A stretch of 56,514 nt of DNA from an uncultured Verrucomicrobiota bacterium (lineage in GTDB: Bacteria; Verrucomicrobiota; Verrucomicrobiia; Limisphaerales; J093). Made by a program: the position numbers and the translations under genes. The stretch is from the NCBI GenBank assembly GCA_964472515.1, contig CAYYMW010000003.1:1-56514 (forward strand), read 5' to 3'. Shown one piece after another: positions 1,776 through 53,649 of the stretch. Each line of letters starts with the position of its first letter. The first letter of the stretch is position 1. Below the pieces are notes generated by a model. It was not told the DNA's origin. It ran no database searches and worked only from the letters and a program-made list of their open reading frames with translations.

Positions 1776-4181
1776 CTACTTCGCCGCCGCCGTGACAGGC
1801 GTGATCTCATAGGCCACGCCCGCCTTGGTGTTGAATTCCACGAGGGTCGGTTCGACCTGGCGGATGTTCAGCGACGAGGCCCGGCCCTTGGCCGGTTTGA
1901 CGGTGACCGGCACGGCGGTCCGCAGCCGGCACGGGTGGCCGAGGCCGGACTCGATGCGGGCCGAAGCCAGTTGCCCCTGCCGCCAGGTCGCGTCCACGGT
2001 GAAGTCGCCGCGCGCCTTGAGTCCGCTGACGTGCCCGTCGGCCCACGCCTTGGGCAGGGCGGGCAGGAGTTCGACCTCACCGGCGTGGCTTTGCACGAGC
2101 ATCTCGCAGACGGCGGCAGTCCCGCCGAAGTTGCCATCGATCTGGAAGGGAGGATGAAGATCGAAAAGGTTCGGCGCGGTGCTCTTGCGCAGCAGGGCCA
2201 CGAGGTTCTCGTAAGCCTGTTCCGCATCGCCCAGGCGGGCCCAGAAGTTGATAATCCACGCCCGGCTCCACCCGGTGTGACCACCGCCGTTCTTGAGGCG
2301 GCGCTCCAGCGTGACGCGGGCGGCCTTGGCAAACTCCGGTGTGCCACGCGGCGTGATCTCACGGCCCGGGTGCAGTGCGAAGAGGTGGGAGATGTGCCGA
2401 TGCCCCGGCTCGGGTTCATCATAGTCCTCGGACCATTCCATGATCTGACCGTGCTTGCCGATGGCGATCGGGGGCAGGCGCTTCACCGTGGCCCGCAACT
2501 TTTCGCGGTAATCGGCGTCGATGCCCAGCACTTCACTGGCGGCAATGCAGTTGTTGAACAGGTCGCGGATGATCTGCGTGTCCATGGAGGCGCCCATGCA
2601 GAGGTTGCCGACCGTGCCGTCCGGCAGGCGGTAGGAGTTCTCCGGCGAGATGGAGGGGCCGCTGACCAGCCGGCCCTTGGGATCGGGCACCAGGTAGTCG
2701 AGGAAGAACTGGGAGGCCTCCTTCATGATGGGGTAACTGCGCTTGGCGAGGAAGGTCTTGTCGCCGGCGAAGGCGTAATGCTCCCACAGATGCTGGCAGA
2801 GCCAGGCGGCTCCCATCGGCCAGAGTCCGTACTGGGGGCCGTCCCCCGGCACCGTGAAGCCCCAGACATCGGTGATGTGATGGGCCACGAAGCCTCCCGC
2901 GCCGTAGTGGATCTTGGCGGTCTTGCGGCCCGGCTCGCGGAGGGAGTCGGTCAACTCCACCAACGGCAGGGTGCATTCGGAGAGATTCGCCGGTTCCGCC
3001 GGCCAATAGTTCATCTGCAGGTTGATGTTCAGATGGTAGTCGGCATTCCACGGCGGGTTCATCCCCTCGGCCCAGAGGCCTTGCAGGTTGGCGGGGAGAT
3101 CGCCGGGACGCGAACTGGCAATCAGCAGATAGCGGCCGTATTGGAAGTAGAGGGCCAGCAGATGGGGATCGTCTTTCCCGGCCTTGACGGCCGCGAGCCG
3201 TTCGTCGGTGGGCGTGTTGGCGGCCTGGACTCCGCCCAGGTCCAGCGACACCCGGCCGAAGAGCTTCTGGTAATCCTCCACGTGCGCCGCGAGCAGTTCC
3301 TTGTAAGACTTCTTGGCCGCCTTGGCCACATAGTCTTCGGAGGTTTGACCGGCTTCCTGTCCGCCAAAGCTGGTGGCCGCGCCGAGGATCAACACCACGG
3401 ACGTGGCGTCCCGCACTTCGAGTCTCTGGGTCGGCGTAAACATGGTGCCGCCTTGGGGTATGGCCTTGAGCACCACCTGATACTCCTGGCCTTGGCCGCG
3501 ATCCAATTGCCCCTGCATCACCACCCGGTCCGGGTTCCGCGTGGTCGTGATGAACTCCTGCTCGCGGTCCAGCGTGGCGAAGAGATTGAGCGCGCCCGGT
3601 TGGCTGGAGCTGACGCGGATCACGATGACTTGGTCCTGATGGCTGGCGAAGATCTCCCGGGTGTACTCCGTCTGGCCGACCTTGTACTTCACGCGGGCCA
3701 CGCCGGTTTCGAGGTCGAGTTCACGGCGGTAGTCCGTTACCTGCTCATGGCCGGGCAATTGCAGGCGCAGATCGCCCAACGATTGGTAGGGACGAACGTG
3801 CATCGGATTGCCCATGAGCTTCTTCTCCGCCAATTTCATGGCCTCGGCGGGCTTGCCGTCGAACAAGAGCTTGCGTACCTCGGGAAGGGCCTTGAGCGCT
3901 TCCGGGTTGTTGACCTCGCGTGGGCCGCCCGACCAGAGCGTATCCTCGTTGAGTTGGATGCGTTCCTTGGCGGTGCCGCCGAAGATCATGCCGCCCAGAC
4001 GTCCGTTGCCGATGGGCAGCGCCTGCTGCTCCCAGTTGGTGCCCGGTTGGCGGAACCAGATCTTCCATTGGCCGCTGCCGGACGGGTCGCTTTTCGGCGC
4101 TGCGTGGGCGCTGCCGTTCGCGACCGCCAAGGCCGCCAGGAGAAGACTCGAGCACAGGAAATCGGACCAGACACGCTTCAT
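1776..4181 (-). CDS. Glycoside hydrolase family 95 (alpha-L-fucosidase/alpha-L-galactosidase type)
   Basis: Signal peptide from MKRVW (ATG 4181); ALPIGNGRLG, QLNEDTLWSG, YFQYGRYLLIASSR, NLQGLW, YHLNINLQMNYW, HRHISHL, HPPFQIDGNFG. Confidence 0.93.
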   Translation of the reverse strand: MKRVWSDFLCSSLLLAALAVANGSAHAAPKSDPSGSGQWKIWFRQPGTNWEQQALPIGNGRLGGMIFGGTAKERIQLNEDTLWSGGPREVNNPEALKALPEVRKLLFDGKPAEAMKLAEKKLMGNPMHVRPYQSLGDLRLQLPGHEQVTDYRRELDLETGVARVKYKVGQTEYTREIFASHQDQVIVIRVSSSQPGALNLFATLDREQEFITTTRNPDRVVMQGQLDRGQGQEYQVVLKAIPQGGTMFTPTQRLEVRDATSVVLILGAATSFGGQEAGQTSEDYVAKAAKKSYKELLAAHVEDYQKLFGRVSLDLGGVQAANTPTDERLAAVKAGKDDPHLLALYFQYGRYLLIASSRPGDLPANLQGLWAEGMNPPWNADYHLNINLQMNYWPAEPANLSECTLPLVELTDSLREPGRKTAKIHYGAGGFVAHHITDVWGFTVPGDGPQYGLWPMGAAWLCQHLWEHYAFAGDKTFLAKRSYPIMKEASQFFLDYLVPDPKGRLVSGPSISPENSYRLPDGTVGNLCMGASMDTQIIRDLFNNCIAASEVLGIDADYREKLRATVKRLPPIAIGKHGQIMEWSEDYDEPEPGHRHISHLFALHPGREITPRGTPEFAKAARVTLERRLKNGGGHTGWSRAWIINFWARLGDAEQAYENLVALLRKSTAPNLFDLHPPFQIDGNFGGTAAVCEMLVQSHAGEVELLPALPKAWADGHVSGLKARGDFTVDATWRQGQLASARIESGLGHPCRLRTAVPVTVKPAKGRASSLNIRQVEPTLVEFNTKAGVAYEITPVTAAAK

Positions 4182-4188
4182 GGTGGAA

Positions 4189-4217
4189 ACCGTTCCGAAA
4201 TCCGCGCGGGCCGTCAA
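4189..4217 (-). promoter_or_regulatory. Candidate sigma70 promoter of the GH95 gene, leaderless geometry
   Basis: Minus strand TTGACG-N17-AACGGT-N7-ATG(4181); the -10 is a weak match. Confidence 0.35.
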
Positions 4218-4477
4218 GCTTGCAGAGTTCGTCTCCAACCGCCTTCCCCGTCACCCGGTCCACCCAGTCCATCGAGGCCTGGGTTCGGCATCCGTCTTCC
4301 GCCTAGGCTGCACCCGGCGGTATGAACAGGAACCAACACCCACCAAGCGAGGGGCCGCACCCAGGCGCCATCAGGGCCGGCCTTCGATGCGGGTCGATTC
4401 GGATTACCCCGGGAGCAGTTCAGGCTCGCCATCGGCACGCTGCCCGGCATAATCGCCCGCGAACTCGTACAACGCCC

Positions 4478-5503
4478 ATGAAGCTCGAGCGCTACGAAGG
4501 CAATCCGATTCTCTCGCCCACGCCGGACCATCCCTGGGAGGACTTGGCCGTGTTCAATCCCGCGGCCTACTATGACGAGGCCAACGGGGAGGTGCTGCTC
4601 CTCTACCGCGCCGCCGAGTCCGGACCGGAGTACAAGTGCTACTTCGGGCTCGCCAAGAGCAGGGATGGCTACCGCTTCGAGCGGCTCTCGGACCGCCCGG
4701 CAATGGACGTCAGCGTCGAGGGATTCGACGGGGCCACCATCCAGGACCCGCGCATTATCAAGCTGGGGGATTGGTATTACGTGACCTATGCCTGCCGGCA
4801 CTATCCGTTTGGCCAGTTCTGGATTCCCGAGGTGCGGCAGAAGTATCTCAAGCCTCCGTGCCCGCCCGAGTTCCCGCATTACCTGCGTACCAACGCCACG
4901 CTGACCGGCCTGGCCATGACGCAGAACTTCAAGTCGTGGATTCGCGCTGGTTGGCTGACTAACCCCCTGCTCGACGACCGGGATGCCATCCTTTTTCCCG
5001 AGAAGATCAACGGCAAGTTCGTGCTGATCCACCGCCCGCTCGAGTGGATCGGCCCCGAGTACGGCACTGAGCATGCCTGCGCATGGATTGCCTTCAGCGA
5101 CGATCTGATGGGCTTTCCCTTCGCCAAGAGCAAGCAACTCCTGCGCAACCGATTCCCTTGGGAGGTCTACAAGATGGGGGTCAACACCCCACCCATCAAG
5201 ACACCGCACGGCTGGTTTACCCTGTACCATGCGGTGGGGGCGGATAAACACTATCGGTTGGGAGCGGTCTTGCTCGACCTGAATGATCCGAGCGTGGTGC
5301 TGCACCGCACGCCCGACTGGCTGATGGAGCCGGAGAAGGATTACGAGCTCGAAGGGTTCTACCGCGGTGTTTGTTTCCCCTGCGGGACCATTGTGAAGGA
5401 TGGGACCCTCTTTGTTTATTACGGCGGCGGGGATAAAGTCTGCGCGGTGGCTACCTGCAATTTCCAGGCATTGATCGACCATCTCCTTTCCTGTCCGGCC
5501 TGA
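4478..5503 (+). CDS. Glycoside hydrolase family 130 (beta-mannoside phosphorylase/glycosidase, five-bladed propeller)
   Basis: Start MKLERYEGNPIL; AVFNPAA, LLYRA, QDPRI, YYVTY, DRDAILFPEKINGKFVLIHRP, PIKTPHGW, YRLGAVLLDL, VCFPCG, YYGGGD. Confidence 0.88.
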   Translation: MKLERYEGNPILSPTPDHPWEDLAVFNPAAYYDEANGEVLLLYRAAESGPEYKCYFGLAKSRDGYRFERLSDRPAMDVSVEGFDGATIQDPRIIKLGDWYYVTYACRHYPFGQFWIPEVRQKYLKPPCPPEFPHYLRTNATLTGLAMTQNFKSWIRAGWLTNPLLDDRDAILFPEKINGKFVLIHRPLEWIGPEYGTEHACAWIAFSDDLMGFPFAKSKQLLRNRFPWEVYKMGVNTPPIKTPHGWFTLYHAVGADKHYRLGAVLLDLNDPSVVLHRTPDWLMEPEKDYELEGFYRGVCFPCGTIVKDGTLFVYYGGGDKVCAVATCNFQALIDHLLSCPA

Positions 5504-5521
5504 ACCTCCATCCGATTGCCC

Positions 5522-5974
5522 ATGAATAAGTCCGAATGTGCCGTGGCCGCTTTCAAGGCGGGTTTCAACTGCTCGCAGGCGGTCCTCTCCGCCTTCGCCG
5601 ATGAAATCGGGATGAGCCGTGAAGCGGCCCTCCGGGTCGCCACCGGTTTCGGTGGCGGCATGGGCCGTACCGCCGGCACCTGCGGCGCGGTGACGGGCGC
5701 CGTCATGGTCTTGGGCTTGCGCCTCGGCGGCTTTGACCCGTCGGATCGCCAAGTCAAGGAGCAAACCTACGCGGCCGTGCGCGAGTTCCTCCGCCGGTTC
5801 GAGAGCAAGCATGGCCCGGTTCGTTGTGCGGACCTGCTGGGATGCGACATTAGCACGGATGAGGGCCTGGCGGCCGCGCGGTCGGCGGAATTGTTCACCA
5901 AACGTTGCCCGCTCTTTGTGGATGAGGCCGCCAGGATTCTCGGCGAGATGCTGCCTCCCCCGCCCGCTGCCTGA
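5522..5974 (+). CDS. C-GCAxxG-C-C family putative redox/metal-binding protein
   Basis: FNCSQAV, GFGGGMG..GTCGAVTGA, RCADLLG and RCP give the family's Cys pattern. Confidence 0.88.
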   Translation: MNKSECAVAAFKAGFNCSQAVLSAFADEIGMSREAALRVATGFGGGMGRTAGTCGAVTGAVMVLGLRLGGFDPSDRQVKEQTYAAVREFLRRFESKHGPVRCADLLGCDISTDEGLAAARSAELFTKRCPLFVDEAARILGEMLPPPPAA

Positions 5975-5994: not shown

Positions 5995-7869
5995 ATGACC
6001 ATGCATCCGGTCGATCTGACGATCATCTTCCTGTATTTGGTGCTCATGTCGGTGGTCGGGTGGTGGGTGTCCAAGAAGGCCTCGGAGAGCGCGGAATCCT
6101 ACTTCCTGGCGGGCAAGAGCCTGCCGTGGTGGATCATCGGGGTGGCGCACGGTTCGAGCGGGGTGGACATCACCGGGACCATGTGGTTCGTGATGATGTT
6201 TTTCATCTACGGCGTGAAGGGGGTCTGGCTGCTGTGGGTGTGGCCGCTCTTCAGCGTCATTTTCCGGATGATGTACCTGGGCACGTGGGTGCGGCGCTCG
6301 AACGTGCTGACCGGTGCCGAGTGGATGCGCACGCGCTTCGGGTTTACGCGCGGGGCCGAGCTCGCCTATCTGAGCGTGGTGGTGTACGCGCTGGTCCATG
6401 TGGTGGGGTTCCTTTGCTACGCCTTCCGCGGCATCGCGGAATTCACCAAACCGTTCTTTCCCTGGGATCTCCCTTACGAAGCCTACGGCACCGCCATGCT
6501 GCTGGTGACGGGCATCTACTGCGTGGTGGGCGGCATGTACAGCGTGGTGATGAACGACCTGATCCAGTTCGTCCTTAAGGTGATCGCAGCGGTGGGCATT
6601 GCGGCGATCGCCATCATCTACATCCGCCCGGAGCAGATCATGGCGGCGGTGCCGGCGGGCTGGGACCAACTCTTCTTTGGGTGGAAATTGAACCTCGATT
6701 GGTCGCAGCTCAACCCGGCGCTGCATGAGCGGGTGACGGGGCCGGGAGGTGACGGCTATTCGCTCTTCATGTTCTTTACCGCGATGCTGTTCTTCAAGGG
6801 CGTCCTGGTGAGTATGGCCGGCCCCACGCCGAACTACGCCATCCAGCATGTGCTCTCCACCCGCAGCCCGCGTGAGGCGGCCCTCGAGAACATGATGATG
6901 GCGGTGGTTTCGCTGGCCCCGCGCTTCCTGCTCATCGCCGCGATCGCGGTCCTTGGTATTGTGTTCTTCGGGAACGATCTGGCGCAGTTGGTGGCTGCCA
7001 AGGGCAAAAGTGCCAAGTTCGAGGAGATCCTGCCGCAGGTTCTCAGTCGCAACTACATCCCGGTGGGCTTCAAAGGCATTCTCATCGCGGCGCTACTGGC
7101 GTCGTTCATGAGTACGTTCGTCTCGACCGTCAATTCCGGTGCGGCCTACGTGGTGAACGACATCTACAAGCGTTACCTCAATCCGGACGCCCCGGCCAAG
7201 CGCTTGGTGCGGCTGGGATGGATCACTTCGAGTGTCGTCATCCTGCTGGGCATCCTCTTCGGTTTCCTGACCCAGAACGTGCATGGGATCACCAAGTGGA
7301 TTACCTCCGCGCTGATTCCCGCTTTTGTCATTCCGAACGTCCTGAAATGGCATTGGTGGCGGTTCAACGGTTATGGGTTCTTCGCCGGCATGGTGGGCGG
7401 AACCGCTGGCGCCCTGATCATTCCGGGCTTCTTCAGGGGCGTCCCCGAGGTGTTCGTGTTCCTGATCATCCTCGCTGTCAGCGGCTTGGCCTCCGTGATC
7501 GCTTGCCTTTGCACCAAGCCCGAGCCGGATGAGGTCCTGAAGAGCTTCTACCGCACCGTGCGGCCGTGGGGTTTCTGGAAACCGATCGTTGAGAAATGCC
7601 GGGCGGACGACGCTGGGTTCGAGGGCAACCGTGACTTTGGCCGGGACATGTTCAACGTGGGCGTCGGGTTGGTCTGGCAGACGGCCATGGTCGCCGCGCC
7701 CATCTACCTGGTGATTCAACATTGGAATGAGTTTGCGATTTCCATGGGCGTCTTCAGCGTCACCTCTCTGATTCTGAAGTTCACCTGGTATGACCACCTC
7801 GGCCCGGGCGAGATGTACCTGACCAAGGACGGCCTGCCTGAACCGGTACCGAGCGGGCCACCGCGTTGA
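5995..7869 (+). CDS. Sodium:solute symporter (SSS family), probable oligosaccharide/sugar importer
   Basis: About 14 TM helices; YFLAGKSLPWW, GGMYSVVMNDLIQF, ASFMSTFVSTVNSGAAYVVNDIY; C-terminal FYRTVRPWGFWKP. Confidence 0.9.
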   Translation: MTMHPVDLTIIFLYLVLMSVVGWWVSKKASESAESYFLAGKSLPWWIIGVAHGSSGVDITGTMWFVMMFFIYGVKGVWLLWVWPLFSVIFRMMYLGTWVRRSNVLTGAEWMRTRFGFTRGAELAYLSVVVYALVHVVGFLCYAFRGIAEFTKPFFPWDLPYEAYGTAMLLVTGIYCVVGGMYSVVMNDLIQFVLKVIAAVGIAAIAIIYIRPEQIMAAVPAGWDQLFFGWKLNLDWSQLNPALHERVTGPGGDGYSLFMFFTAMLFFKGVLVSMAGPTPNYAIQHVLSTRSPREAALENMMMAVVSLAPRFLLIAAIAVLGIVFFGNDLAQLVAAKGKSAKFEEILPQVLSRNYIPVGFKGILIAALLASFMSTFVSTVNSGAAYVVNDIYKRYLNPDAPAKRLVRLGWITSSVVILLGILFGFLTQNVHGITKWITSALIPAFVIPNVLKWHWWRFNGYGFFAGMVGGTAGALIIPGFFRGVPEVFVFLIILAVSGLASVIACLCTKPEPDEVLKSFYRTVRPWGFWKPIVEKCRADDAGFEGNRDFGRDMFNVGVGLVWQTAMVAAPIYLVIQHWNEFAISMGVFSVTSLILKFTWYDHLGPGEMYLTKDGLPEPVPSGPPR

Positions 7870-7931
7870 GGGGGAAGCCGGTTGCTCCGGCGAGGTTGAC
7901 ACCCGAGGGCGGCTGCGGCAGGGTCGTGACC

Positions 7932-9746
7932 ATGAACAAAGCCGGGTTCTTGTGGCTCCACCTGGGTTTGGCGGTCTTGTCATGCGGCCCCGCTTGGGCA
8001 CAGCACGGGGGCGGAACGGACTCAGTCCCCTTCTTCCGCGCCACCGCCGCGCAAGGGTTGGCGCAGACCAACCAGCAACTGTCGCTCACCTGCCTCCAAA
8101 ACCTGCGCTCCCTCTGGTTCGCCGGCGCGAAATTCGCCACGGACAATCAAGATGTCTGGCCGGCCAGTTGGGCTGGCTTCACCAACTACATCGGCGACCC
8201 GAAGCTGCTCTACTGCCCCGCCGACACCGGTCATCCGGCTCAGACCAACTGGACGACCGTGGATTTCGACGCCCTCAGTTACGAGCTCGTTTCGCCTGGC
8301 TTCAAGGAAGACGGCTCCGATGCGAGGTTCGCCCGTTGCCGCGTGCACGGCAATTTCGTCGGGATGGGCGGCACGCCGAAACATGCCCGTCCTTACGCGG
8401 CGCAGGTGTTTCCGCTGGCTGCCGAAGGCAGCCTGGTGCCTCCGGCCACCGCCTTGAGCGCGGCCCGCGAGGCCAACGTGTCGCAACGCTGCCTGAATCA
8501 GATTAAACAGATCGGCCTGGCCGCCCGCCTCGCCGCCCTGGACAACCAGGATATCTTGCCCGCCACAATCAGCGAGTTGACCAACACGCTGTATTATCCC
8601 TCCTCGTTGATCTGTCCCGCCGATCCGTTCACCCCTGTGCCGGCGAACTTCGGCGAGGTGGACCTGGCCGCCGTCACCTACGTGATCCTGGCCCCCGGCG
8701 CCAAGGAGAGCGACCCGGTGCAGCCTTGCGCCCGGTGCCGCATCCACGGGCACGTGGTGGATACTTATGGCGCGGCCACGACCGGGACCAACCGCTACCC
8801 GCCCCGCCTCATCGTGGGCCATCCCCTCAGCCAGACCATCGAACCGGACCACCCCGGCACCCTCTCCGTCACTACCGGTGATCCCTCCCTCGGCCCGTTC
8901 CAATACCAGTGGCGGCGGGTGCAGCCCATCGATGCCCAGGGCGAGCCCTTCACCAACACCGTGGTCATCGAAAGCGCGACGAACCAGATCTATGCCATCC
9001 CGGCGGCACAAGCCGCCGACGAAGGGTACTACGACGTCATCGTCCGAGACGCCCAAGGCGGCTACCAACTCAGCGCCATGGCTTACGTGCGCGTGGAACC
9101 GCTTACGAACATGCTTGCGGACCCCGGTTGGGAAACCAACGTCTGCGTCTCGAACTTGCGCCAAATCCGCCTTGCCGCTCGCATGCAGGGCAGCCCTTCC
9201 CGCGCCCACCCGGACACCCTGGACGCCCTGCCGCCCTACCTCGGTTGGCCGCTGGCCCTGTATTGCCCCAGCGATCCGCACTACACGCCGTTGCGTGCTC
9301 TGCCGCCAGATGATCCAGAGCCGACGAATACCCCAGCGCTCAACCTCCCTGCCGAACCGCAGCGTCCGGTGCCCACCGCTTGGGACAAGGTCACCTTCGC
9401 CGACACCAGCTACCTTCTCTGCCAGGGCGTGCCCTACGACGCCACCAACCGCGTCCTGGCCACCTGCAAGATTCACGGCTTTCAGGTCCTACCCGACGGC
9501 ACCGTGAAACTGACGGGCACGCAGCCCTTGGCGCCGCAGTTGACCATTCAGACATCCGGAGCCGGGGCTGAACTCGTCCTCACCGTGCGTGGCGTGGCGG
9601 GCACGAGTTGCCTTATCGAGACCTCGACCGACCTGCGGCAGTGGACGGGCGTGACCACGAACCTCCTGGGCGAGACGGCCCTCCAAGTCACCAACGTCAC
9701 CTGGCAGGCCGAGGGCGGTCGCTACTACCGCGCCTCCGTGCGTTAG
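7932..9746 (+). CDS. Secreted multidomain protein: three pseudopilin-head-like Cys/His repeats + Ig-like domain + C-terminal beta-sandwich ending RYYR
   Basis: Signal peptide MNKAGF...AWA|Q; three repeats CxxN(L/I)xx(L/I)...CP(A/S)D...C(R/K)(V/I)HG; Ig motif QYQW...ADEGYYDVIV. Confidence 0.75.
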   Translation: MNKAGFLWLHLGLAVLSCGPAWAQHGGGTDSVPFFRATAAQGLAQTNQQLSLTCLQNLRSLWFAGAKFATDNQDVWPASWAGFTNYIGDPKLLYCPADTGHPAQTNWTTVDFDALSYELVSPGFKEDGSDARFARCRVHGNFVGMGGTPKHARPYAAQVFPLAAEGSLVPPATALSAAREANVSQRCLNQIKQIGLAARLAALDNQDILPATISELTNTLYYPSSLICPADPFTPVPANFGEVDLAAVTYVILAPGAKESDPVQPCARCRIHGHVVDTYGAATTGTNRYPPRLIVGHPLSQTIEPDHPGTLSVTTGDPSLGPFQYQWRRVQPIDAQGEPFTNTVVIESATNQIYAIPAAQAADEGYYDVIVRDAQGGYQLSAMAYVRVEPLTNMLADPGWETNVCVSNLRQIRLAARMQGSPSRAHPDTLDALPPYLGWPLALYCPSDPHYTPLRALPPDDPEPTNTPALNLPAEPQRPVPTAWDKVTFADTSYLLCQGVPYDATNRVLATCKIHGFQVLPDGTVKLTGTQPLAPQLTIQTSGAGAELVLTVRGVAGTSCLIETSTDLRQWTGVTTNLLGETALQVTNVTWQAEGGRYYRASVR

Positions 9747-9946: not shown

Positions 9947-10225
9947 ATGAGAAAGGTCACGGAATCGACGAGATGGGCTGTGGAAGTGAGCTTGGGCTGG
10001 CCTGGAGGCATGGGCGTCGGGTTGGGTTGGTTACTCAAGTCGTTGGCCCTGTTGGTGGCGGCTGGTCGGGCGGATGAATATCCGCGGCCGGGAGCCTCGA
10101 GGTCGCCGACGGTTGCGGGAGCGGTTTGGAGCTCAATCAGCAAGGAACTGGGCAGCTACGCGATCATCCCATGGGACAGTCCCAACTGCTTCGTCAGGGC
10201 GCGAAACACCTACACTTCGCCGTGA
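9947..10225 (+). CDS. Short hypothetical ORF with signal-peptide-like segment, possibly a gene remnant
   Basis: MRKVTEST...GWLLKSLALLVAAGRA|DEYP followed by only about 50 aa; fills an otherwise empty 500-bp gap. Confidence 0.25.
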   Translation: MRKVTESTRWAVEVSLGWPGGMGVGLGWLLKSLALLVAAGRADEYPRPGASRSPTVAGAVWSSISKELGSYAIIPWDSPNCFVRARNTYTSP

Positions 10226-10250
10226 CCGCGCGATGCCGGATCGACTCACT

Positions 10251-11669
10251 ATGTCTCGCTCACATACAACGCACGGTTGGTGCGCACGGATGCTGGAATT
10301 GGGTTTCGCCGCGTGGTTCTGTGCAAGCCTCGTTCAAGCCGGCACTGCGCTCAACCCCACGAACAGGGTCCGGTTGGAGGGTACCTCGTTTCGCGACGAC
10401 TCCGGGCCCTTTTTGGCGCTGGGGGCGTCCTATTTCCAAGCCCTGCATCACGCCAAGTACGACCGGCCTCGACTGGAGAGCAACCTGGCCTTGCTGGCCA
10501 CCAACGGGTTCAACTACGTGCGCGTCCTGGGCATGGTCAGTTGGGAGGGCTTGGAGATGGCTCCCGTGGCCTTTACCAACCGGGCGGGCCGGGCGGTGGC
10601 CGCCTGGCCGGACTACTGGCGGCAGTTCGACGATCTCCTCGAGTCCGCGGGTCGCCACGGTTTGCGGGTCGAGTTGACGGTGTTTGCCGACGCCCAGTAC
10701 GTGGTGCCGGGGCGAGCGGAGCGGTTGGCGCATCTGGATGCCGTGCTCGCCCACCTGGCGGGACGGGAAGGACGGGTGCTCTGCGTGGAGGTAGCCAACG
10801 AAGCCTGGCAGAACGGCTTTCCCGGGACGCAAGGGGTGGCCGATTTACGGGCGTTTACCCGGCACTTGGCGGATCGAACCTCGGTGCCTGTGGCGATCTC
10901 TTCGCCGCCGGACACGAGTGACCAAGGCATCATCGAGCTCTACCGCGAGAGCGCGGCGGATCTTGCCACGGTGCATTTCAGCCGGGATACGCGCACGGCG
11001 GAGGGCGGATGGTTGCCGGTGCGGGACTGCTTTCGCGCGGCGCACCTGCCGGGCGTGCCGCCGGTATGCAGCAACGAGCCGATTGGGCCGGGGGCATCCG
11101 TCGCGGCGGAAGCCGACCCCGTCAAGCTCTGCGCGGCGGCGGCGTTTGCCTATCTCGCCAACCTGCCGGCCTACGTGTTTCACTCCCGCGCCGGCATTTA
11201 CGGCTACTCCCAGTGTTGTCCGCCGGGCGGCGTGGCACTGCGCTTCGAGGATACCCCCGGCATCAGCGCTTTTCGTTTCCTGGGTCCATTGCTGCCGCCG
11301 GACCTCGCCGGTTGGCAGCGGCACGATGGCCTTGAAGCCGCCGCGCCGTTCACGGTCTTCTGCGCCGGCCAGACCAACCGCTACTGGACCGAGGTGCCGG
11401 GAGCCACCGACGGGTGCCATCGCAACATCGGAGCGATCAACGGTGCCGATTGGGTGGGACTGGCCACCGGGATACTCAGGGACGGCTTGACGCTGCAGGC
11501 GCGCCGGGCCGTGCGCTTCACTGTCTTCAATCCGCTTACCGGGCAGGAGGTGAACCGGTTTGTCATGAAAGCTGGAGGACGCTGCCGTTTACTTCCCGGC
11601 CCTGGGGTTTACCTTTTCAAGGGGCGCTTTGAGGACGTGCCGTCCACGGACAGGGACACGATCAAGTAG
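10251..11669 (+). CDS. Secreted clan GH-A-like (GH5-like) TIM-barrel hydrolase, family unassigned
   Basis: Hydrophobic leader (start 10251 or 10290); GFNYVRVL, EVANE (acid/base-like), VHFSR, SNEPIG (nucleophile-like). Confidence 0.65.
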   Translation: MSRSHTTHGWCARMLELGFAAWFCASLVQAGTALNPTNRVRLEGTSFRDDSGPFLALGASYFQALHHAKYDRPRLESNLALLATNGFNYVRVLGMVSWEGLEMAPVAFTNRAGRAVAAWPDYWRQFDDLLESAGRHGLRVELTVFADAQYVVPGRAERLAHLDAVLAHLAGREGRVLCVEVANEAWQNGFPGTQGVADLRAFTRHLADRTSVPVAISSPPDTSDQGIIELYRESAADLATVHFSRDTRTAEGGWLPVRDCFRAAHLPGVPPVCSNEPIGPGASVAAEADPVKLCAAAAFAYLANLPAYVFHSRAGIYGYSQCCPPGGVALRFEDTPGISAFRFLGPLLPPDLAGWQRHDGLEAAAPFTVFCAGQTNRYWTEVPGATDGCHRNIGAINGADWVGLATGILRDGLTLQARRAVRFTVFNPLTGQEVNRFVMKAGGRCRLLPGPGVYLFKGRFEDVPSTDRDTIK

Positions 11670-11757: not shown

Positions 11758-13158
11758 TCACAGCTTCAGGCGGAAGAAGCGGGCGGCCTCTGTCGGGGCC
11801 ATGGTCCAGGGGGTCTGTGCACCCGTTTCATTCTGCCACGGGCCTGCGGGTGTGGGGGCGCTTTGCAGGGTGCCGGAGTTCCACCGCAGGGCCAAGACGG
11901 TGCCGATGCGAACGATACTCAGCTTCGGGGTTACCCGGCCAGTGCGCTGAGGGTTTTGCCGGAACATTGGCCACGGGCTGTCGGCAGGCGGGGAGTCGCC
12001 TTTGAGGGCGTAGACCTTCCCGTCGAAGGACGAGATGTAGACCGTGCCGTCCGCGCCGATGACGGGTGACGCAGTCACCATGCCGCCGGTCTGAAATACC
12101 CAGCGCAGCTCGGCCGTCGTGCTGTCGATGGCGTAGAGTTTAGAGTCATCGGAACCCACATAGACGGTGCCGTCCGCAGCCACCGCAGGGGAGGAGGATA
12201 CGGCACCAGTGGTGGAGTACTCCCAGAGCCTTTCCCCGGTGACGCCGTTGAAGGCGTGGAGCTTGAAGTCGTCACCACCGACGAACACGGTTCCGTCCGC
12301 TCCGACGGCTGGAGAGGACTCCACCGGCATGGTGATGGGGAACGCCCAGCGCTTCTGGCCGGACTGAGCGTCCAAGGCGTAGAGGTTGAAGTCCACCGAT
12401 CCGATGTAGACGACGCCGTTCGCCCCCAGAGCGGGCGAGGCGGTGACCATCTCCCCCGTCAAGAAGCTCCAGCGGATTTGCCCGGTGCGGCCGTCCAAGG
12501 CGTAGACCCGTTTGTCCCACGAGCCGAAGTAGACCGTTCCGTCGGCGCCAATGGCGGGAGAGGAGGTGACGGAAGACTCTGTGGCGAAGCGCCAGCGGCG
12601 TTGACCGGTGGCGGCGTCCACGGCGTGAATGGCTCCGTCAAATGAAGCAACAAGCACCGTGCCGTCGGCCGTGAGAGCGGGGGAGGAGGAAACGGGGGCC
12701 TGGCAGTCGTAGGTCCAACCCCGGCTGCCGGAACCGCCGGCCAAGGCAATCAGGCTGCCGTCGGCCACGCCGACATAGACCGTTCCGTCTTGGCCGACGG
12801 CCGGGGCCGTGTCGATCCAATTTCCGGCCAGAAATTCCCAGCGTTTCTCGCCGGTGGCGCCTTCCAGGGCATAGAGCTTGTTGTCATGCGATCCCACATA
12901 GACCGTGCCGTCCGCGCCGAGGGCGGGCGAGGAATCCATGTAGCTGCCAGTGGCGAACTCCCAGAGCTTGACGCCGGGAGGGATGGGTGCCGGAGCAGTC
13001 TCGGCGGGAGGAGAGGGACTCGTTGTTGTCTGCCCCGCCATGGCAGAGTTGCCTGGAGCATGGGCCAAGGCGAGGAGCAACGCGCAAATCGGCCAAGACG
13101 GTGTCGTGCCCGGGTGGCCAAGCCCAGTCTGCCTGCATCTCAACAGGGCCGCATTCAT
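11758..13158 (-). CDS. PQQ-like beta-propeller repeat protein with C-terminal RFFRL domain
   Basis: About eight repeats of SSPA(I/L/V)xxDGTVY(V/F)GSxDxxLYA(L/I)DxxTG..W; signal peptide; start 13158 (ORF extends to 13212). Confidence 0.9.
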   Translation of the reverse strand: MNAALLRCRQTGLGHPGTTPSWPICALLLALAHAPGNSAMAGQTTTSPSPPAETAPAPIPPGVKLWEFATGSYMDSSPALGADGTVYVGSHDNKLYALEGATGEKRWEFLAGNWIDTAPAVGQDGTVYVGVADGSLIALAGGSGSRGWTYDCQAPVSSSPALTADGTVLVASFDGAIHAVDAATGQRRWRFATESSVTSSPAIGADGTVYFGSWDKRVYALDGRTGQIRWSFLTGEMVTASPALGANGVVYIGSVDFNLYALDAQSGQKRWAFPITMPVESSPAVGADGTVFVGGDDFKLHAFNGVTGERLWEYSTTGAVSSSPAVAADGTVYVGSDDSKLYAIDSTTAELRWVFQTGGMVTASPVIGADGTVYISSFDGKVYALKGDSPPADSPWPMFRQNPQRTGRVTPKLSIVRIGTVLALRWNSGTLQSAPTPAGPWQNETGAQTPWTMAPTEAARFFRLKL

Positions 13159-13239
13159 AAGTGCCTTCGCGACAGGATATGGATGTTCTGAGGTGGCAAG
13201 GACTACCACCAATCACGCACCGCCGCCAGCCTTTCCTGC

Positions 13240-15921
13240 TTACTCCTGCCAGTCCAGCGGCACGGTTTGCTCGGTCAACACCGCCGCCGGACGATCCTGG
13301 TAGAGGCGGCGGGTGTAGGCATCCTTGAGCCCGCGCACGGTTACGGTGGTACGTGTTCCGGGCGTAATCCCCTCCGTGGTGAGCCGCACCCGGTTGCCGT
13401 CCACTGTCAGGGCGGTGATCCTGCCGCTGGAAAGGCCGTAATGGGAGACATCCTCGGCGGTGGCTTGGTCCAACCGCTTCGAGAAGGTGAGGTCAGCGCG
13501 CTCGCCGGTGTGCTTCACCCCCACAATCCTGGGAGCCTCGGTGTACATGTAGAGGCCGAGGAAATACTCGTAAACCGTGGTGTTCTGCACCCCCAGCTTG
13601 GTGCAGGCCTGTTCGAAGGCGCGGATCCAAACCCAGTTGCGCCGGTTCTGCGTCTGGGAGCCGGTGTCCGCCTGGATCATCACGGGTTGGTTGGTCACCC
13701 CGGCGCGGATGGCTTGGAGAAAGGGGGCGTACTTGTTGACGTAAGCGGGAAGCAGGTCGGCGCGGATCCAGTCCGGCCAGTGGGTTTGCAGGCAGAAGAG
13801 GTCGGGCTTGACGGTGCGGGCGATTTCCGTGGGGTCTTCGCCGCTGTCCTCCAGCACACGCTGCAAGCCGTTGGCGTCGGTCAGTGCCAGGGTCCAGACG
13901 CACACCAGCCTGCCCGGCGCGGTGGCGCGAATGCCCTGCGGGCCGTTGACCAGATCGTCGAGGAAACCGGTCAGGCTCGCATGGCGAAAGGTGAGCCATT
14001 TCTGCCACAGGGCGGGGTTGTTGGCGGGATAGAGCGGGGCGCTCGGATTCAGAATGTCCGGCAAGGCCTGCTCCTCCGGGAACTGTTGGCGGAAGGCGGC
14101 GAGGCATTGCGGACAGAAGCAGGCGTAGGCGGGGCTTCCGATTCCCGGGTACTCCGGCCAGTGAGGTTCCATCAGGTCCACTCCCTCGAAGGCTTGGTTG
14201 GTGAGCATGCTCGCCATCTGCGCCTTCTTCCACGCGCGGTAGTCCGGGTTATTGAGACACAGGCGGGTGTAGCCGTCGTTGAGCGGTTTCCCCAGCAGGT
14301 CGCTGCGGGTGACCATCCGCCACGCTTCCCAGCCCGGCGGCAGGTCATTGGTGCTGTAGCTGCCGTTGGCAAAAGTGGAGTACCACACCCCGATGCCGGC
14401 CCGGTGGAAGGCGGCGATGAGGTCCGGCCGCACGTTGCTGTCGGCGGTGAGAATGTACCGCGCGATGCTGTACCCACTCGCGCGAATCTCGGAAGCGATG
14501 CTCTCGGCGGAGCGGTCACGGTAGTAGCTGAAGGCCGGGTCAACCTCCACGCTCCGGCCAAAGGCCGGGAAGAAGGGACGGTCCACACAGGTCTTCAGGT
14601 AATCGGCATACAGGGCCTGCTGCGCCGCGCCCCGGTAAGGGCTGAGGTAGTGGAAGAAATCGAAAGTGACAAACTGCTCCACAAAGGGCGCTTCCGCCGC
14701 GAGTTGCCGGGTCAGGCGGGCGAGGTCCGTCACCCCGAACCGATCCGGCGCGGTCTGGATCAGGCGGAAGGATTCGAGATCGCTCCAAAAGGCCACGCCC
14801 GTGGCCACACAGGCGTTGCGCACGGCGCGGAAATACGGGATGACACGGTCCTCCAAATCCTTGTCCCAGCCGCGCGCGCCCACGCCGTCCTGCAACATCA
14901 GGATGTCGAGACCCGCCCCTTCGAGGAACTTCTTGTAGAACCGCTCGATGGTATCGGCGGTCACCGAACCGGAATAGAAGGGGGCGAACGAGACGGGCTT
15001 GGGGCCGGAGAGTTGTTTGCAGTGGTCGCTGACCCGGCGGAAGAAGGCCCGGAGAGTGGTTGTCTCGGCGTCGGTGTAACTGCCGTCCCAGCTTTCCTGC
15101 GGCAGGTACCAACCCGCGAAGGAACGATGGTGACCGTAGCGCGCCCAGAGTTCGGAGGCGAGAGCGCAACTGGTGTCCCCCGCCTGCTTCAGGTAGGTGG
15201 CGTCGGTGCTTTGCGTCCACCAACCGTCATCCATCGCCAGCCCCGGAAAGACCTTCAGCCCGTGCGCATCCGCGTAGGCCATGATCGTTTCGGTGACATC
15301 GTTCGTCGCCCCCTCGGCGGGCAGGAACCGGTTCTGGTTGTACTGGTGCCACTGCAGGAAGATCATTCGCAGCCCGGCCCGGCGCATCGCGTCCAACTCC
15401 TGCTGCCAGGCGTTGGTGTCCATTCTCATCATCCAGGTCTGGTACTGGATGAAGGTGCCGTCCAGGTGCAGGCCCGCTTCTCCCGTCGGTCCCGCCGCCG
15501 GCTGGGGCACGAAGAACGCCCCCGGCCGTCGCTTGTTCAGTTCAAACCGCACTTCCTCCCCGGCGGCGCCCGCGTCGGTGACCGGATGAAAGCTGCGGTC
15601 CGTGGCCCGCTCCGGCTCCAGCAACCGCCCCTGCGGTGACCACCCACTGCCGGCCAGCAACTCGGTAGGCGATGCCTGCGCCTTCCACGAGAGGGTGACC
15701 GAATCTGGGTGGTCCTGGATGGAGATGGAGGGCGGCGTGTACGCCGGGGCCGCCGCGTTGTCGGCCGAGTCCGTCCGCCCCCAACCCGCACTGCACGCCA
15801 GGAGGCACCCAAGCAGTCCCAGCCGCACAGCTACACCGTGCCAGCAAGCCCTCGACCCGCGAGCTCCAATCACACCACTCGCACCCCTGACCGCCCTGTA
15901 CGAGATGAACCGTGTCGTCAT
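13240..15921 (-). CDS. Secreted DUF4434-domain protein with a second glycoside-hydrolase-like barrel and a C-terminal Ig (Big_5-like) domain
   Basis: LDGTFIQY, WQQELDAM, FAGWYLPQE, LMLQDGVG, FWSDLESF match DUF4434; second domain has LCLNNPDY, FEGVDLMEP, CFCPQC; C-terminal LTFSKRLD...TVTVRGLKD. Confidence 0.75.
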   Translation of the reverse strand: MTTRFISYRAVRGASGVIGARGSRACWHGVAVRLGLLGCLLACSAGWGRTDSADNAAAPAYTPPSISIQDHPDSVTLSWKAQASPTELLAGSGWSPQGRLLEPERATDRSFHPVTDAGAAGEEVRFELNKRRPGAFFVPQPAAGPTGEAGLHLDGTFIQYQTWMMRMDTNAWQQELDAMRRAGLRMIFLQWHQYNQNRFLPAEGATNDVTETIMAYADAHGLKVFPGLAMDDGWWTQSTDATYLKQAGDTSCALASELWARYGHHRSFAGWYLPQESWDGSYTDAETTTLRAFFRRVSDHCKQLSGPKPVSFAPFYSGSVTADTIERFYKKFLEGAGLDILMLQDGVGARGWDKDLEDRVIPYFRAVRNACVATGVAFWSDLESFRLIQTAPDRFGVTDLARLTRQLAAEAPFVEQFVTFDFFHYLSPYRGAAQQALYADYLKTCVDRPFFPAFGRSVEVDPAFSYYRDRSAESIASEIRASGYSIARYILTADSNVRPDLIAAFHRAGIGVWYSTFANGSYSTNDLPPGWEAWRMVTRSDLLGKPLNDGYTRLCLNNPDYRAWKKAQMASMLTNQAFEGVDLMEPHWPEYPGIGSPAYACFCPQCLAAFRQQFPEEQALPDILNPSAPLYPANNPALWQKWLTFRHASLTGFLDDLVNGPQGIRATAPGRLVCVWTLALTDANGLQRVLEDSGEDPTEIARTVKPDLFCLQTHWPDWIRADLLPAYVNKYAPFLQAIRAGVTNQPVMIQADTGSQTQNRRNWVWIRAFEQACTKLGVQNTTVYEYFLGLYMYTEAPRIVGVKHTGERADLTFSKRLDQATAEDVSHYGLSSGRITALTVDGNRVRLTTEGITPGTRTTVTVRGLKDAYTRRLYQDRPAAVLTEQTVPLDWQE

Positions 15922-16028
15922 GCGGACAGAAGTTAGCCAACGCCGTGTCAAAGTACACTCGCAAACCGCCGCGAACAGCAGGATGGCTCCACCAGCGCTT
16001 GCCAATGGAGCCTGCGGGCAAGAGGGAT

Positions 16029-17219
16029 CTATGGGACTTCTTGGACCCGGAAGAAGCGGGCTGAATCGATTACCTCAACCTCCCGGCTGGCGACCTCCTC
16101 CGTGGCCACAAATGGGTCACCGACGGGCAACCATGCGCTCATGGTGGGGGAGGCTTCCAGTTGGTACTTGTGGCCAAACGTGAGACTCATCCGTACGTTG
16201 ACGCGGCTCACACCAAGCGTCAGCGAGGGGGGGGCGGGCGGATGAGTGATCAGTACGACGGCGTTGGTGGAGTAACCTCGGCCCGCACTGAGTATTTCCA
16301 AATCGGCCACTTGTCCCCCGACCACACTGGCGCGAACCTCGGCACCGTTGCCCAAGGCGTCCATGATTCTCACCGCCGGGGGCGGATTGGTGTCGTAACC
16401 GTAGCCGGGGTCGGTGACCGTCACCCCGACGAGAAAGCCATTCACGACCTGCGCGGTGGCTGTGGCGCGATGGGGAACTGCGTTGGCCTCGTTCTGGTAC
16501 AATGAGCTTACTTCCAGCTCGGACAAAGCCCGGTTGTAGATGCGAACGTCGTCGATGGCTCCCGAGAAGGAGTAGAGGTCCGGCGTGCTGCCAATGCGCA
16601 GTGGCCCCGCGGTTTGTTTGATGCCGGAGGTGTCAAACGCCGTGGTAGCGTTGAGGCTGCCGTTGACGTAGATTGCAAGGAGGCTACGCGGGCTGTCGAT
16701 GACGGCCGCGAAGTGGTACCAGACGGATGGGGCAATACCGCCGCGCTTGCTTTCGATGCCCTTGCGGCCGTTGGCCTCTACGAACGGGGTTGCGGTGAAG
16801 TTCAGCTTTCCCTGATTGTGGAGGAACACCGCAAATTGCCGGTTGAGCCAGGGTGACTCATCGGGAAGGTCGCCTTTCCACAGGAGTGTCTGCCACGTGG
16901 GCGACAGGGTGTCGGCCATGAACCAAGCGCTCAAGGTCAGTTCGGTATCAAGGTGCAGGGCTGGATTGTCGGACACCTCAATGTAGTGACTCGCGAGGCC
17001 GTCGAGCCACAGAGCGTGGTCCTTGAGGCCAAACCGGTTGCCCGTGGGAGTCGTTCCCAACACCGCCCCGTGGTGGTTATTGCCACTTTCGTCATTGGCA
17101 TTCCCGTCGAGCGGATACCAAGCTACCAGCCCGTTGGTCATGAATGGTGGTTGGGCGTTTCCGACTGCGGAAAGCCCGACTGCCATCGCCAGAACCGTGA
17201 TCGTCGTTGCGAATCTCAC
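16029..17219 (-). CDS. Secreted LamG-like jellyroll (ConA-like lectin) protein with C-terminal RFFRV domain
   Basis: GLVAWYPLDGNANDESGN, WYHFAAV, IYVNG, FSGAIDDVRIYNRALS; GTG start with AAGGAAAGGAG SD. Confidence 0.88.
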   Translation of the reverse strand: MRFATTITVLAMAVGLSAVGNAQPPFMTNGLVAWYPLDGNANDESGNNHHGAVLGTTPTGNRFGLKDHALWLDGLASHYIEVSDNPALHLDTELTLSAWFMADTLSPTWQTLLWKGDLPDESPWLNRQFAVFLHNQGKLNFTATPFVEANGRKGIESKRGGIAPSVWYHFAAVIDSPRSLLAIYVNGSLNATTAFDTSGIKQTAGPLRIGSTPDLYSFSGAIDDVRIYNRALSELEVSSLYQNEANAVPHRATATAQVVNGFLVGVTVTDPGYGYDTNPPPAVRIMDALGNGAEVRASVVGGQVADLEILSAGRGYSTNAVVLITHPPAPPSLTLGVSRVNVRMSLTFGHKYQLEASPTMSAWLPVGDPFVATEEVASREVEVIDSARFFRVQEVP

Positions 17220-19686: not shown

Positions 19687-19815
19687 GGACACCATGCTAT
19701 CGGGAAGGTGCCCGAAGTCCACGCGGAAAGCGCCTGGGTCCACGGGCGGTGTGCGCAGTCTTGGGCGCGCCTTGCAGCGCACCGCACTTGCTTTCCCGCC
19801 CTACCCGTGAGGCAC

Positions 19816-46922: not shown

Positions 46923-46979
46923 TGTTGGCGGGCGGCTTTGGCCGCCCCCGACCGACTCCCAACCCTATTCCCCCGTCCT

Positions 46980-48731: not shown

Positions 48732-48734
48732 CGC

Positions 48735-50027: not shown

Positions 50028-50039
50028 AAACCCCAACGC

Positions 50040-50510
50040 ATGCGCATGAAAACCCAACCAAGCCCCTTCCGAACGACCCGCCGCGAGCGCCGGCGCGGGT
50101 TCACGCTGATCGAACTGCTGCTCGTGCTGGTCATTCTGGGCGTCCTGGCCGCTATCGTCGTCCCCAAATTCGCCGGCCGCACCGAGCAGGCGCGTCTGAC
50201 CGCCGCGCAAACGCAGATCGCCACCTTCGGCACGGCGCTGGACGCCTTCGAGGTGGACAACGGCTACTATCCCAAAGGCCGCAACGGGCTGCTGGACCTG
50301 TTCACCCAACCGCGCGACACCACCAATTGGAAGGGCCCGTACCTGAAGAACGACGTGCCCATGGACCCCTGGGGCAAGGAGTATATCTACGAGTGCCCGG
50401 GCAAGCAGAACCCGAACGGCTATGACCTCTATTCGCTGGGGCCGGACGGCCGCGAGGGCACCGAGGATGACATCACCAGCTGGCAGCAGGGCAGCCAGAA
50501 GAAGAAGTAG
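50040..50510 (+). CDS. gspG: Major pseudopilin GspG
   Basis: G|FTLIELLLVLVILGVLA; ALDAFEVDNGYYP; WKGPYL; DPWG..Y; YSLGPDG. Confidence 0.95.
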   Translation: MRMKTQPSPFRTTRRERRRGFTLIELLLVLVILGVLAAIVVPKFAGRTEQARLTAAQTQIATFGTALDAFEVDNGYYPKGRNGLLDLFTQPRDTTNWKGPYLKNDVPMDPWGKEYIYECPGKQNPNGYDLYSLGPDGREGTEDDITSWQQGSQKKK

Positions 50511-50516
50511 CGTCCT

Positions 50517-53647: not shown

Positions 53648-53649
53648 CC

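Follow-up and report, generated by a model that had tools for sequence, protein, structure and literature searches.

A predicted exported protein of a Verrucomicrobiota bacterium built from three shortened pilin-type heads with a conserved Cys3His set

A stretch of 56,514 nucleotides from an uncultured Verrucomicrobiota bacterium (Limisphaerales, J093; GenBank assembly GCA_964472515.1, contig CAYYMW010000003.1, positions 1–56,514), referred to below as the window, carries an open reading frame (ORF) at 7866–9746 (+) whose product contains three copies of a small pilin-type head domain. The ATG at 7932 was preferred as the start codon because the N-termini of orthologues agree with it, giving a protein of 604 amino acids. 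From its sequence the gene product is predicted to be an exported multi-domain protein of roughly 60 kDa, in which a Sec signal peptide is followed by two repeats of ∼105 residues, an immunoglobulin (Ig)-like domain, a third repeat and a C-terminal β-sandwich ending in RYYRASVR.

The Sec-type signal peptide, read from the sequence, comprises residues 1–23 (7932–8000, +; MNKAGFLWLHLGLAVLSCGPAWA), with predicted cleavage between AWA and the following Gln. This Gln is kept across the orthologues, behind a hydrophobic N-terminus, in an alignment of 22 sequences. Neither a twin-arginine motif nor a lipobox was found on reading the N-terminus through the residues QH that follow the signal peptide, and a lipoprotein was ruled out, Cys18 lying outside any lipobox and not being conserved in orthologues. 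With regard to secretion and solubility, export across the inner membrane is all that the sequence of the three-head protein supports.

Boundaries of the three heads were taken from a hidden Markov model built on the repeats; all features of the gene lie on the + strand. Head 1 (8064–8381; residues 45–150) contains as candidate ligands C54 (8091–8093), C95 of a CPAD motif (8214–8216), C136 (8337–8339) and H139 (8346–8348). A linker at 8382–8462 with conserved ARPY…FP residues (P154, Y155 and P161 in the 22-sequence alignment) joins it to head 2 (8463–8780; residues 178–283), which starts with AAREANVSQRCLNQIKQIGLAARL and has its candidate ligands at C187 (8490–8492), C228 (8613–8615), C269 (8736–8738) and H272 (8745–8747). 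The Ig-like β-sandwich, of I-set/Ig_3 type, follows at 8793–9101 (about residues 288–390); it was assigned from Foldseek (best match E 2.3e-5, TMt 0.81) and from Ig_3 matches in 16 of the 22 orthologues, the domain of the window protein itself falling below the Pfam reporting threshold. Head 3 (9120–9509; residues 397–526) carries C405 (9144–9146), C445 of a CPSD motif (9264–9266), C512 (9465–9467) and H515 (9474–9476) as candidate ligands. It also contains a proline-rich insertion of 27 residues, HYTPLRALPPDDPEPTNTPALNLPAEPQRP (9279–9359; residues 450–476), which extends from the CPSD loop to the next conserved Trp, is predicted to be disordered and was seen in the 22-sequence alignment in P0001–P0003 alone, the window protein and the two homologues nearest to it. 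The last domain is the C-terminal β-sandwich of ∼74 residues, which with the stop codon occupies 9522–9746 (residues 531–604) and bears an S-x-D-L-x-x-W motif and the terminal RYYRASVR. All of the candidate ligands are invariant in 22 of 22 orthologues (41–86% identity); the remaining Cys residues of the window protein (18, 266, 497 and 560) are not.

Pairwise BLASTP gave E 6.6e-25 for repeats 1 and 2 (37% identity), 6.5e-10 for repeats 1 and 3 and 1.7e-8 for repeats 2 and 3, and a three-way alignment of the repeats gave 32–38% identity. E values this low exclude chance, so the repeats are true paralogues. Each of them constitutes a separate orthologous group across the family; the repeats are real and ancient. 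A preliminary description of the locus had placed them at 8091–8372, 8490–8771 and 9144–9500, the starts being exactly the first Cys of each repeat. Of the motifs it had assigned to every repeat, CP(A/S)D, (S/T)Y and C(R/K)(V/I)HG occur in all three, but CxxN fails in repeat 2, which reads C-L-N-Q-I-K-Q-I and has its Asn at +2 instead of +3. Its other statements on the layout (three invariant Cys and one invariant His, which hold in every repeat of the 22 orthologues; an Ig domain between repeats 2 and 3; a Sec signal peptide; a C-terminal RYYR domain, which is present and conserved) were also correct.

A full-length AlphaFold2 (AF2) model computed with the 22-sequence alignment had a mean predicted local distance difference test score (pLDDT) of 81.7 and a predicted template-modelling score (pTM) of 0.72. 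Every head was predicted as a long helix, short helices and three strands; in head 1 the helix spans residues 39–71 and is followed by three short strands, with a pLDDT of about 90. The Ig sandwich was placed at residues 294–388 and a six-strand C-terminal sandwich at residues 536–603. Predicted disorder was confined to the signal peptide (pLDDT < 50 for residues 1–27) and the proline-rich insertion of head 3 (pLDDT < 50 for residues 452–476). Head 2 modelled alone with 40 repeat sequences reached a pLDDT of 96.5 and a pTM of 0.87, with a helix at positions 2–27 and strands at 74–76, 89–93 and 99–101. C-x-x-H-G was placed by AF2 at the turn joining the last two strands. A Foldseek search with the whole model matched Ig domains alone and was uninformative on the heads.

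Sequence comparison identifies the repeat as a shortened paralogue of the globular head, including helix α1C, of the prepilin-type H-X9-DG/DUF1559 proteins. When a profile of 40 repeats (A3) was compared by hhalign with an alignment of H-X9-DG proteins (A4), a probability of 99.1% and E 6.8e-19 were obtained over 108 columns, running from the first helix to the last strand and thus over the full length of the repeat; A4 had been gathered with the repeat profile, which makes this result circular to some extent. In a database of 5.8 billion sequences, A3 found short proteins that each contain the domain once and complete, including one named ‘pseudopilin PulG’ by its source, as well as proteins of ∼220 residues annotated at source as prepilin-type N-terminal cleavage/methylation and H-X9-DG proteins (E 1e-9 to 1e-4). 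Two sizeable stretches of the canonical head are missing from the repeat, ∼20 residues after the conserved ‘LP’ and ∼26 residues between the SY strand and the His, and the repeat retains helix α1C (C-x-x-N-L-K-Q-I-G-L-A), the CPxD loop, the SY strand and the His…DG hairpin. The hairpin is three residues shorter (H-X6-DG versus H-X9-DG; HGFQVLPDG in repeat 3, family consensus HGHxVxTDG). The His of C-x-x-H-G is the counterpart of that in H-X9-DG, and an extra Cys stands three residues ahead of it. With its H-X6-DG spacing and extra Cys this mini-head is a distinct sub-type of the head.

Owing to the shortened hairpin, TIGR04294 was not matched by the window protein in the NCBIfam scan. PF07596 (DUF1559; gathering score 23.3 bits) was not matched by it in Pfam even at E ≤ 10, and the two collections together returned only DM, FliI and HGG_STG noise (E > 0.01). 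PF07596 was touched by 13 of the 22 orthologues at E ≤ 1, and three of ten scanned orthologues scored above its gathering score (31.6, 27.4 and 30.6 bits); these matches span only profile positions 2–43 of 268, the helix after the prepilin leader. The kinship with DUF1559 proposed in the preliminary description was thus recovered by profile comparison, but Pfam left the window protein unmatched and reached only that helix in the orthologues.

The three-head protein has neither the hydrophobic helix α1N nor the G/FxxxE processing site of prepilins. It gave no N_methyl, PF07963 or TIGR02532 match in the Pfam and NCBIfam scans, and a prepilin-leader motif scan of the window matched only in the type II secretion system (T2SS) genes GspG–GspJ at 50–52 kb and nowhere in the three-head protein, in agreement with the earlier statement that a pilin N-terminus is missing. 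In three single-head relatives (P0127, P0145 and P0210) a G/FTLIE leader is directly followed by a mini-head with the same C-C-C-H set; these proteins score 24–34 bits on TIGR02532 (cut-off 16.3), and P0127 scores 26 bits on PF07963. Since the same head follows a leader in these proteins and the leader is absent from the window protein, the heads have been detached from α1N and concatenated, as had been proposed before. At their N-termini the A4 proteins are true members of the pilin class: these N-termini matched GspG and solved type IV pilins (E as low as 4e-5), and A4 also matched the GspG, GspH and GspJ leaders of the window. No match to GspG–GspK of the window (50040–53647) was obtained with the repeat profile, and none to T2SSG, GspH, T2SSI, T2SSJ or T2SSK was obtained for the three-head protein in Pfam and NCBIfam.

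Among 5.8 billion clustered proteins, 24 full-length or nearly full-length relatives were found (41–86% identity); all derive from metagenomes or metagenome-assembled genomes (MAGs) and none bears a functional name. A full-length copy occurs in two of 185,579 species-representative genomes, both of them Verrucomicrobiota MAGs. The ratio of nonsynonymous to synonymous substitution rates against the 86%-identical homologue (dN/dS = 0.32) indicates purifying selection on the gene. DNA of the organism was detected in metagenomes of biofilm, sludge and wastewater. A small number of short contigs from wastewater metatranscriptomes match the gene exactly, which is consistent with its transcription, DNA carry-over being possible.

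An exhaustive profile search of 1.84 billion representatives returned 5670 proteins at E ≤ 1e-3, of which 1125 also passed E ≤ 1e-10 and 47 passed E ≤ 1e-30; the best 150 of the 5670 matches entered the analysis. Among the proteins with complete heads that the analysis covered, 32 have three heads and 19 have two, the latter arranged as signal peptide, head, Ig domain, head and the same C-terminal sandwich. One head is found behind a clear prepilin motif in three proteins, behind a directly adjacent hydrophobic helix in 22 and in other settings in 98, mostly as an N-terminal transmembrane (TM) segment, a coiled coil and the head. The head with the Cys3His set (C3H head) is therefore widespread and lies mostly outside pilins. 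Single-head C3H proteins score E 1e-27 to 1e-31 on the repeat profile, and in P0031 and P0119 the single head is membrane-anchored. The head–Ig–head core also stands ahead of multiple Ig domains in P0073 and P0084 and ahead of a CBM6 domain in P0091, all three proteins terminating in the same (F/Y)YR sandwich. With one-, two-, three- and seven-head architectures found, pilin-type heads have repeatedly been freed and strung together in these bacteria, and among the resulting architectures that of the window family is one that is well defined.

The C3H head is most often carried by a type of protein of 300–400 residues (P0101, P0104, P0106 and about 90 alike) in which a conserved N-terminal segment precedes a single TM helix, a long coiled coil and the head, often followed by C-terminal ‘MMKRYGLLP’ repeats; these proteins, which gave no match in a Pfam scan, look from their sequences like membrane-tethered stalks. 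A further type, of about 550–575 residues (P0026, P0098, P0110, P0122, P0126 and P0197), begins with an unannotated domain of ∼420 residues, after which come a pilin-like hydrophobic helix (‘…GMVLPALAKAKSKAQSIQC’) and one C3H head; as the ∼420-residue domain precedes it, the pilin-type helix is internal in these proteins and not N-terminal. The seven-head protein, P0143 (1941 residues), carries its heads in tandem, with NPGD in place of CPAD and with N-L-x-Q-I-G helices, ahead of about ten ‘SISSGP…YxCTATYDD’ repeats, and gave no Pfam match.

The C-terminal sandwich of ∼74 residues, which ends in (R/Q)(F/Y)YR, is common to the three-head proteins, their two-head relatives and the larger Ig/CBM6 proteins, standing at or close to the C-terminus of exported proteins that otherwise differ. 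It matched nothing in Pfam, NCBIfam or the PDB, and a profile search with it in the 5.8-billion-sequence database (176 candidates past the word filter) gave 13 matches, all short unannotated fragments. A role in sorting or anchoring is conceivable for it.

The helix Cys, the CPxD Cys and the Cys-x-x-His are intact in 253 of 255 complete heads across the architectures, both exceptions being His→Asp replacements; the Asp of CPxD is far more variable (87%). Canonical H-X9-DG heads hold the first two Cys and the His and have no third Cys, and P0143 lacks all four residues. The number of invariant Cys residues is odd (three), which disfavours disulfides alone. This count, the tolerance of His→Asp only and the joint loss of the set in P0143 favour one structural metal over disulfides, as does the position of C-x-x-H-G at a strand turn together with its CPxCG-like knuckle, the CP(I/x)HG hairpin resembling the CPxCG metal knuckle. 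Two orthologues gave weak matches to Rieske proteins (CxxH box), probably caused by this likeness of CP(I)HG. An Fe–S cluster, whether Rieske-like or of the mitoNEET-like 3Cys-1His kind, is unlikely given a signal peptide of Sec type rather than Tat type, and c-type haem was ruled out by the lack of a CxxCH motif. As a Sec-type signal peptide favours a metal acquired after export, Zn2+ would be the likeliest ion. The ligands would be the Cys of the helix, that of CPxD and the Cys-x-x-His knuckle at the β2–β3 turn, and the metal would hold together the helix, the α–β loop and the C-terminal hairpin of what is a very small domain. On balance, it is somewhat more likely than not that the four invariant residues of each head bind one structural metal ion, most likely Zn2+. 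Of the C3H metal-binding module put forward in the preliminary description, the conservation and the substitution pattern are observed and the bound metal is a prediction from them.

It is unlikely, although it ranks next after metal binding, that the two Cys residues shared with H-X9-DG heads form a disulfide and that the additional CxxH is a redox-active or catalytic dyad or a weak metal- or thiol-ligand site. Such an arrangement would suit the canonical heads, which hold just these two Cys and the His, and an oxidising compartment in which classical pilins use disulfides (PMC4471445). It leaves unexplained, however, why the His is invariant in canonical heads that have no third Cys, why Asp is its sole tolerated replacement and why P0143 has lost the whole set of four at once; it would also be unusual for an adhesin-like scaffold to hold three catalytic centres in tandem.

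The three-head gene comes after genes for a GH130 enzyme (4322–5503, +), a C_GCAxxG_C_C protein (5516–5974, +) and an SSF Na+/solute symporter (5995–7869, +), all on the same strand. This glycan-utilisation neighbourhood begins with an SGNH/GxDLY esterase (540–1694, −) and a GH95 α-fucosidase-type enzyme (1776–4238, −). On the other side lie an ORF without a Pfam match (10074–11669, +), a PQQ-like β-propeller protein (11758–13212, −), a DUF4434 protein (13240–16005, −), a LamG protein (16029–17219, −) and a second ORF without a Pfam match (17920–19782, −). A promoter and terminator scan around the three-head gene gave nothing above shuffled expectation. The order GH130, C_GCAxxG, SSF is retained beside the 86%-identical homologue.

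A complete T2SS operon, GspE-F-G-H-I-J-K-(L)-M, does lie in the same window, as the preliminary description had noted, at 46938–55628 and about 37 kb from the three-head gene. It comprises GspE (46938–48731), GspF (48735–50027), GspG (50040–50510), then GspH, GspI and GspJ (after GspG and before GspK, within 50040–53647), GspK (52085–53647), an ORF of 481 residues that is possibly GspL (53650–55095) and a GspM-type protein (55071–55628); a sigma-54-dependent response regulator (43868–45325) is encoded upstream of it. A link between the three-head gene and this operon is not supported, given the 37 kb distance and the absent synteny. Operon-based inference of function was dropped altogether because the neighbourhood is kept only at the 86%-identical homologue.

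The explanation considered probable for the data as a whole is that the gene encodes an exported three-head protein made of shortened pilin-type heads, with a putative metal clamp in each, that works independently of pili. Having no α1N, the heads would escape processing by prepilin peptidase and polymerisation into filaments. The three rigid heads, spaced by the Ig domain and followed by the C-terminal sandwich, might serve as modules for ligand binding or adhesion, either in the periplasm or on the cell surface. Such a role is suggested by the domain company of the heads, namely Ig, CBM6 and the recurrent C-terminal sandwich; relatives with the same head–Ig–head core bear additional Ig domains and CBM6. 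A binding or adhesive function of the three heads in the periplasm or at the surface, apart from any pilus machinery, is possible but is put forward tentatively. The observation made in the preliminary description is confirmed, and its interpretation as a whole is partly supported.

Besides the circularity of the hhalign comparison, several points weigh against this explanation. A Foldseek search of the PDB with a single head gave no significant match, its sole extended match being the Thermus type IV pilin PilA4 (6xxd; E 4.3, probability 0.15, TMq 0.52). The repeat profile matched no PDB sequence, and neither the mini-head nor the canonical H-X9-DG head was matched by a solved structure in PDB profile searches. 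The relationship to pilins consequently rests on sequence homology and topology, the structural match not being significant; the similarity expected of a single repeat was found with profiles of H-X9-DG heads and not with Foldseek. Cys-rich zinc sites are uncommon in oxidising extracytoplasmic compartments, and the two Cys residues common to the canonical heads could form a disulfide. The neighbours of four homologues at 47–52% identity (P0009, P0008, P0016 and P0004) are wholly different from those in the window and include PSCyt2/PSD1/DUF1501 genes as well as genes for an epimerase, a tRNA synthetase, subunits of NADH dehydrogenase and large proteins with repeats; T2SS and pilus genes were absent near these four. 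Nothing points to a ligand, and the function of DUF1559 itself is unknown (PMC10632474).

A different role, as an accessory that captures an oligosaccharide, whether periplasmic or at the cell surface, and supplies it to the adjacent Na+/solute symporter and GH130 enzyme, is rather improbable. The three genes that precede the three-head gene on its strand, the GH95, SGNH esterase, DUF4434 and LamG genes flanking the locus, the same gene order at the 86%-identical homologue and the CBM6 domain of a two-head relative would all accord with it, as would the Pfam short name of DUF1559, SBP_bac_10, a family labelled as solute-binding proteins in PMC2754498. That label, however, has no experimental basis, the function being called unknown in PMC10632474, and the heads showed neither a motif nor a fold known for binding sugars. 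Synteny is gone at 47–52% identity, so the linkage to GH130 and SSF is recent and probably incidental.

Least probable is a factor associated with a pilus or the T2SS, whose free heads would mimic pilin–pilin head contacts and dock on a pseudopilus or type IV filament as a cap, tip adhesin or assembly modulator: homology of the heads to prepilin-type heads, a complete T2SS operon within the window and the very many H-X9-DG prepilins that genomes of the Planctomycetes–Verrucomicrobia–Chlamydiae (PVC) group encode as potential partners (PMC10632474) speak for it, but the operon is 37 kb distant, the four homologues at 47–52% identity stand beside unrelated genes with no T2SS or pilus genes among them, most C3H heads occur in non-pilin architectures and incorporation into a filament requires α1N and Glu5, both absent here. 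The pilus-tip adhesin or assembly modulator of the preliminary description is accordingly not retained.

The pilus-independent, exported three-head protein leads to a broader proposal, which is more speculative than a binding role for the three heads: the mini-head may be an autonomous metal-dependent extracytoplasmic binding module derived from pilin heads and used in multi-head, stalk and large adhesin proteins, with a Cys–Cys–His metal site running through the DUF1559/H-X9-DG proteins. If that is true, the three-head proteins would be the most tractable, putatively soluble entry to the ligand of this superfamily. DUF1559/H-X9-DG is among the largest paralogue families of Planctomycetota and Verrucomicrobiota, one model species having 68 copies, two of them essential (PMC10632474); the superfamily includes the largest paralogue family of model Planctomycetes. 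The window family shows that a head of the DUF1559 type can exist without the pilin helix, recurs in over a thousand sequence clusters with non-pilin architectures and bears a strictly conserved Cys3His set. Being anchor-free and putatively soluble, the three-head protein lends itself to expression, to analysis of its metal content, to structural work and to screening for ligands, with results that could be transferred to the superfamily.

The three-head protein and the C3H mini-head are real, conserved and undescribed, and their parent family is already known but uncharacterised. A literature search gave no paper on the H-X9-DG head, the C3H head or the three-head architecture, and Pfam and NCBIfam hold no model for the mini-head or for this architecture. 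The closest family is H-X9-DG/DUF1559 (PF07596 ‘SBP_bac_10’, TIGR04294) of Planctomycetota and Verrucomicrobiota (PMC10632474, PMC2754498). Features common to its head and the mini-head are the C-x-N-N-L-K-Q-I-G-L-A helix, the loop with CPxD, the SY strand, the His that never varies and the turn with DG; the two occur in PVC bacteria alone, and neither has an assigned function (PMC10632474). The three-head protein differs from this family in having no prepilin leader or α1N, in the size of the head (about 105 versus about 160–270 residues), in the H-X6-DG spacing with the additional invariant Cys of CxxH, and in combining three heads per chain with an Ig domain and a C-terminal sandwich; three defining features of the family are missing from it, namely a Pfam score above the threshold, X9 spacing and a prepilin leader. 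The single-head C3H proteins (P0127, P0145, P0210, P0031, P0119 and the P0101 type) have the same mini-head with the same C-C-C-H set, but tethered by a prepilin or hydrophobic helix or carried on a coiled-coil stalk, and they have neither the Ig domain nor the C-terminal sandwich.

The closest described architecture is the dual-pilin fold of Clostridioides difficile PilJ, in which two pilin-type heads share one polypeptide and the second, without an α1N of its own, projects as an interaction surface (PMC9556784). PilJ retains a processed α1N and joins the pilus, whereas no head of the three-head protein has an α1N, and no relationship to PilJ was detectable when the repeat profile was compared with PDB sequences. 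The PilJ structure reportedly also contains a zinc coordinated by Cys. Beside PilJ, the sole known ‘dual-pilin’ protein, the three-head protein stands as a second and more extreme case. In the modular type IV pilins PilB and PilC of Streptococcus sanguinis, pilin modules are joined to adhesion-type domains (PMC6916266). There a pilin able to form filaments receives a functional domain; in the three-head protein it is the heads that are grafted, and the filament-forming part is missing. In its predicted overall plan the mini-head resembles GspG and the classical type IV pilins: an N-terminal helix packs against a small antiparallel sheet, and a staple, in the mini-head a proposed one, lies in the region of the C-terminal hairpin. 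In classical type IV pilins the C-terminal region is stapled by a disulfide and in GspG by Ca2+. The Ca2+ site of GspG reportedly lies in the β2–β3 loop, a finding attributed to Korotkov et al. 2009. The staple proposed for the mini-head from its sequence is instead a metal held by Cys3His. If this proposal is correct, a Cys/His-bound metal would be a third way of stapling the C-terminal region of a pilin-type head, beside the disulfide and Ca2+.

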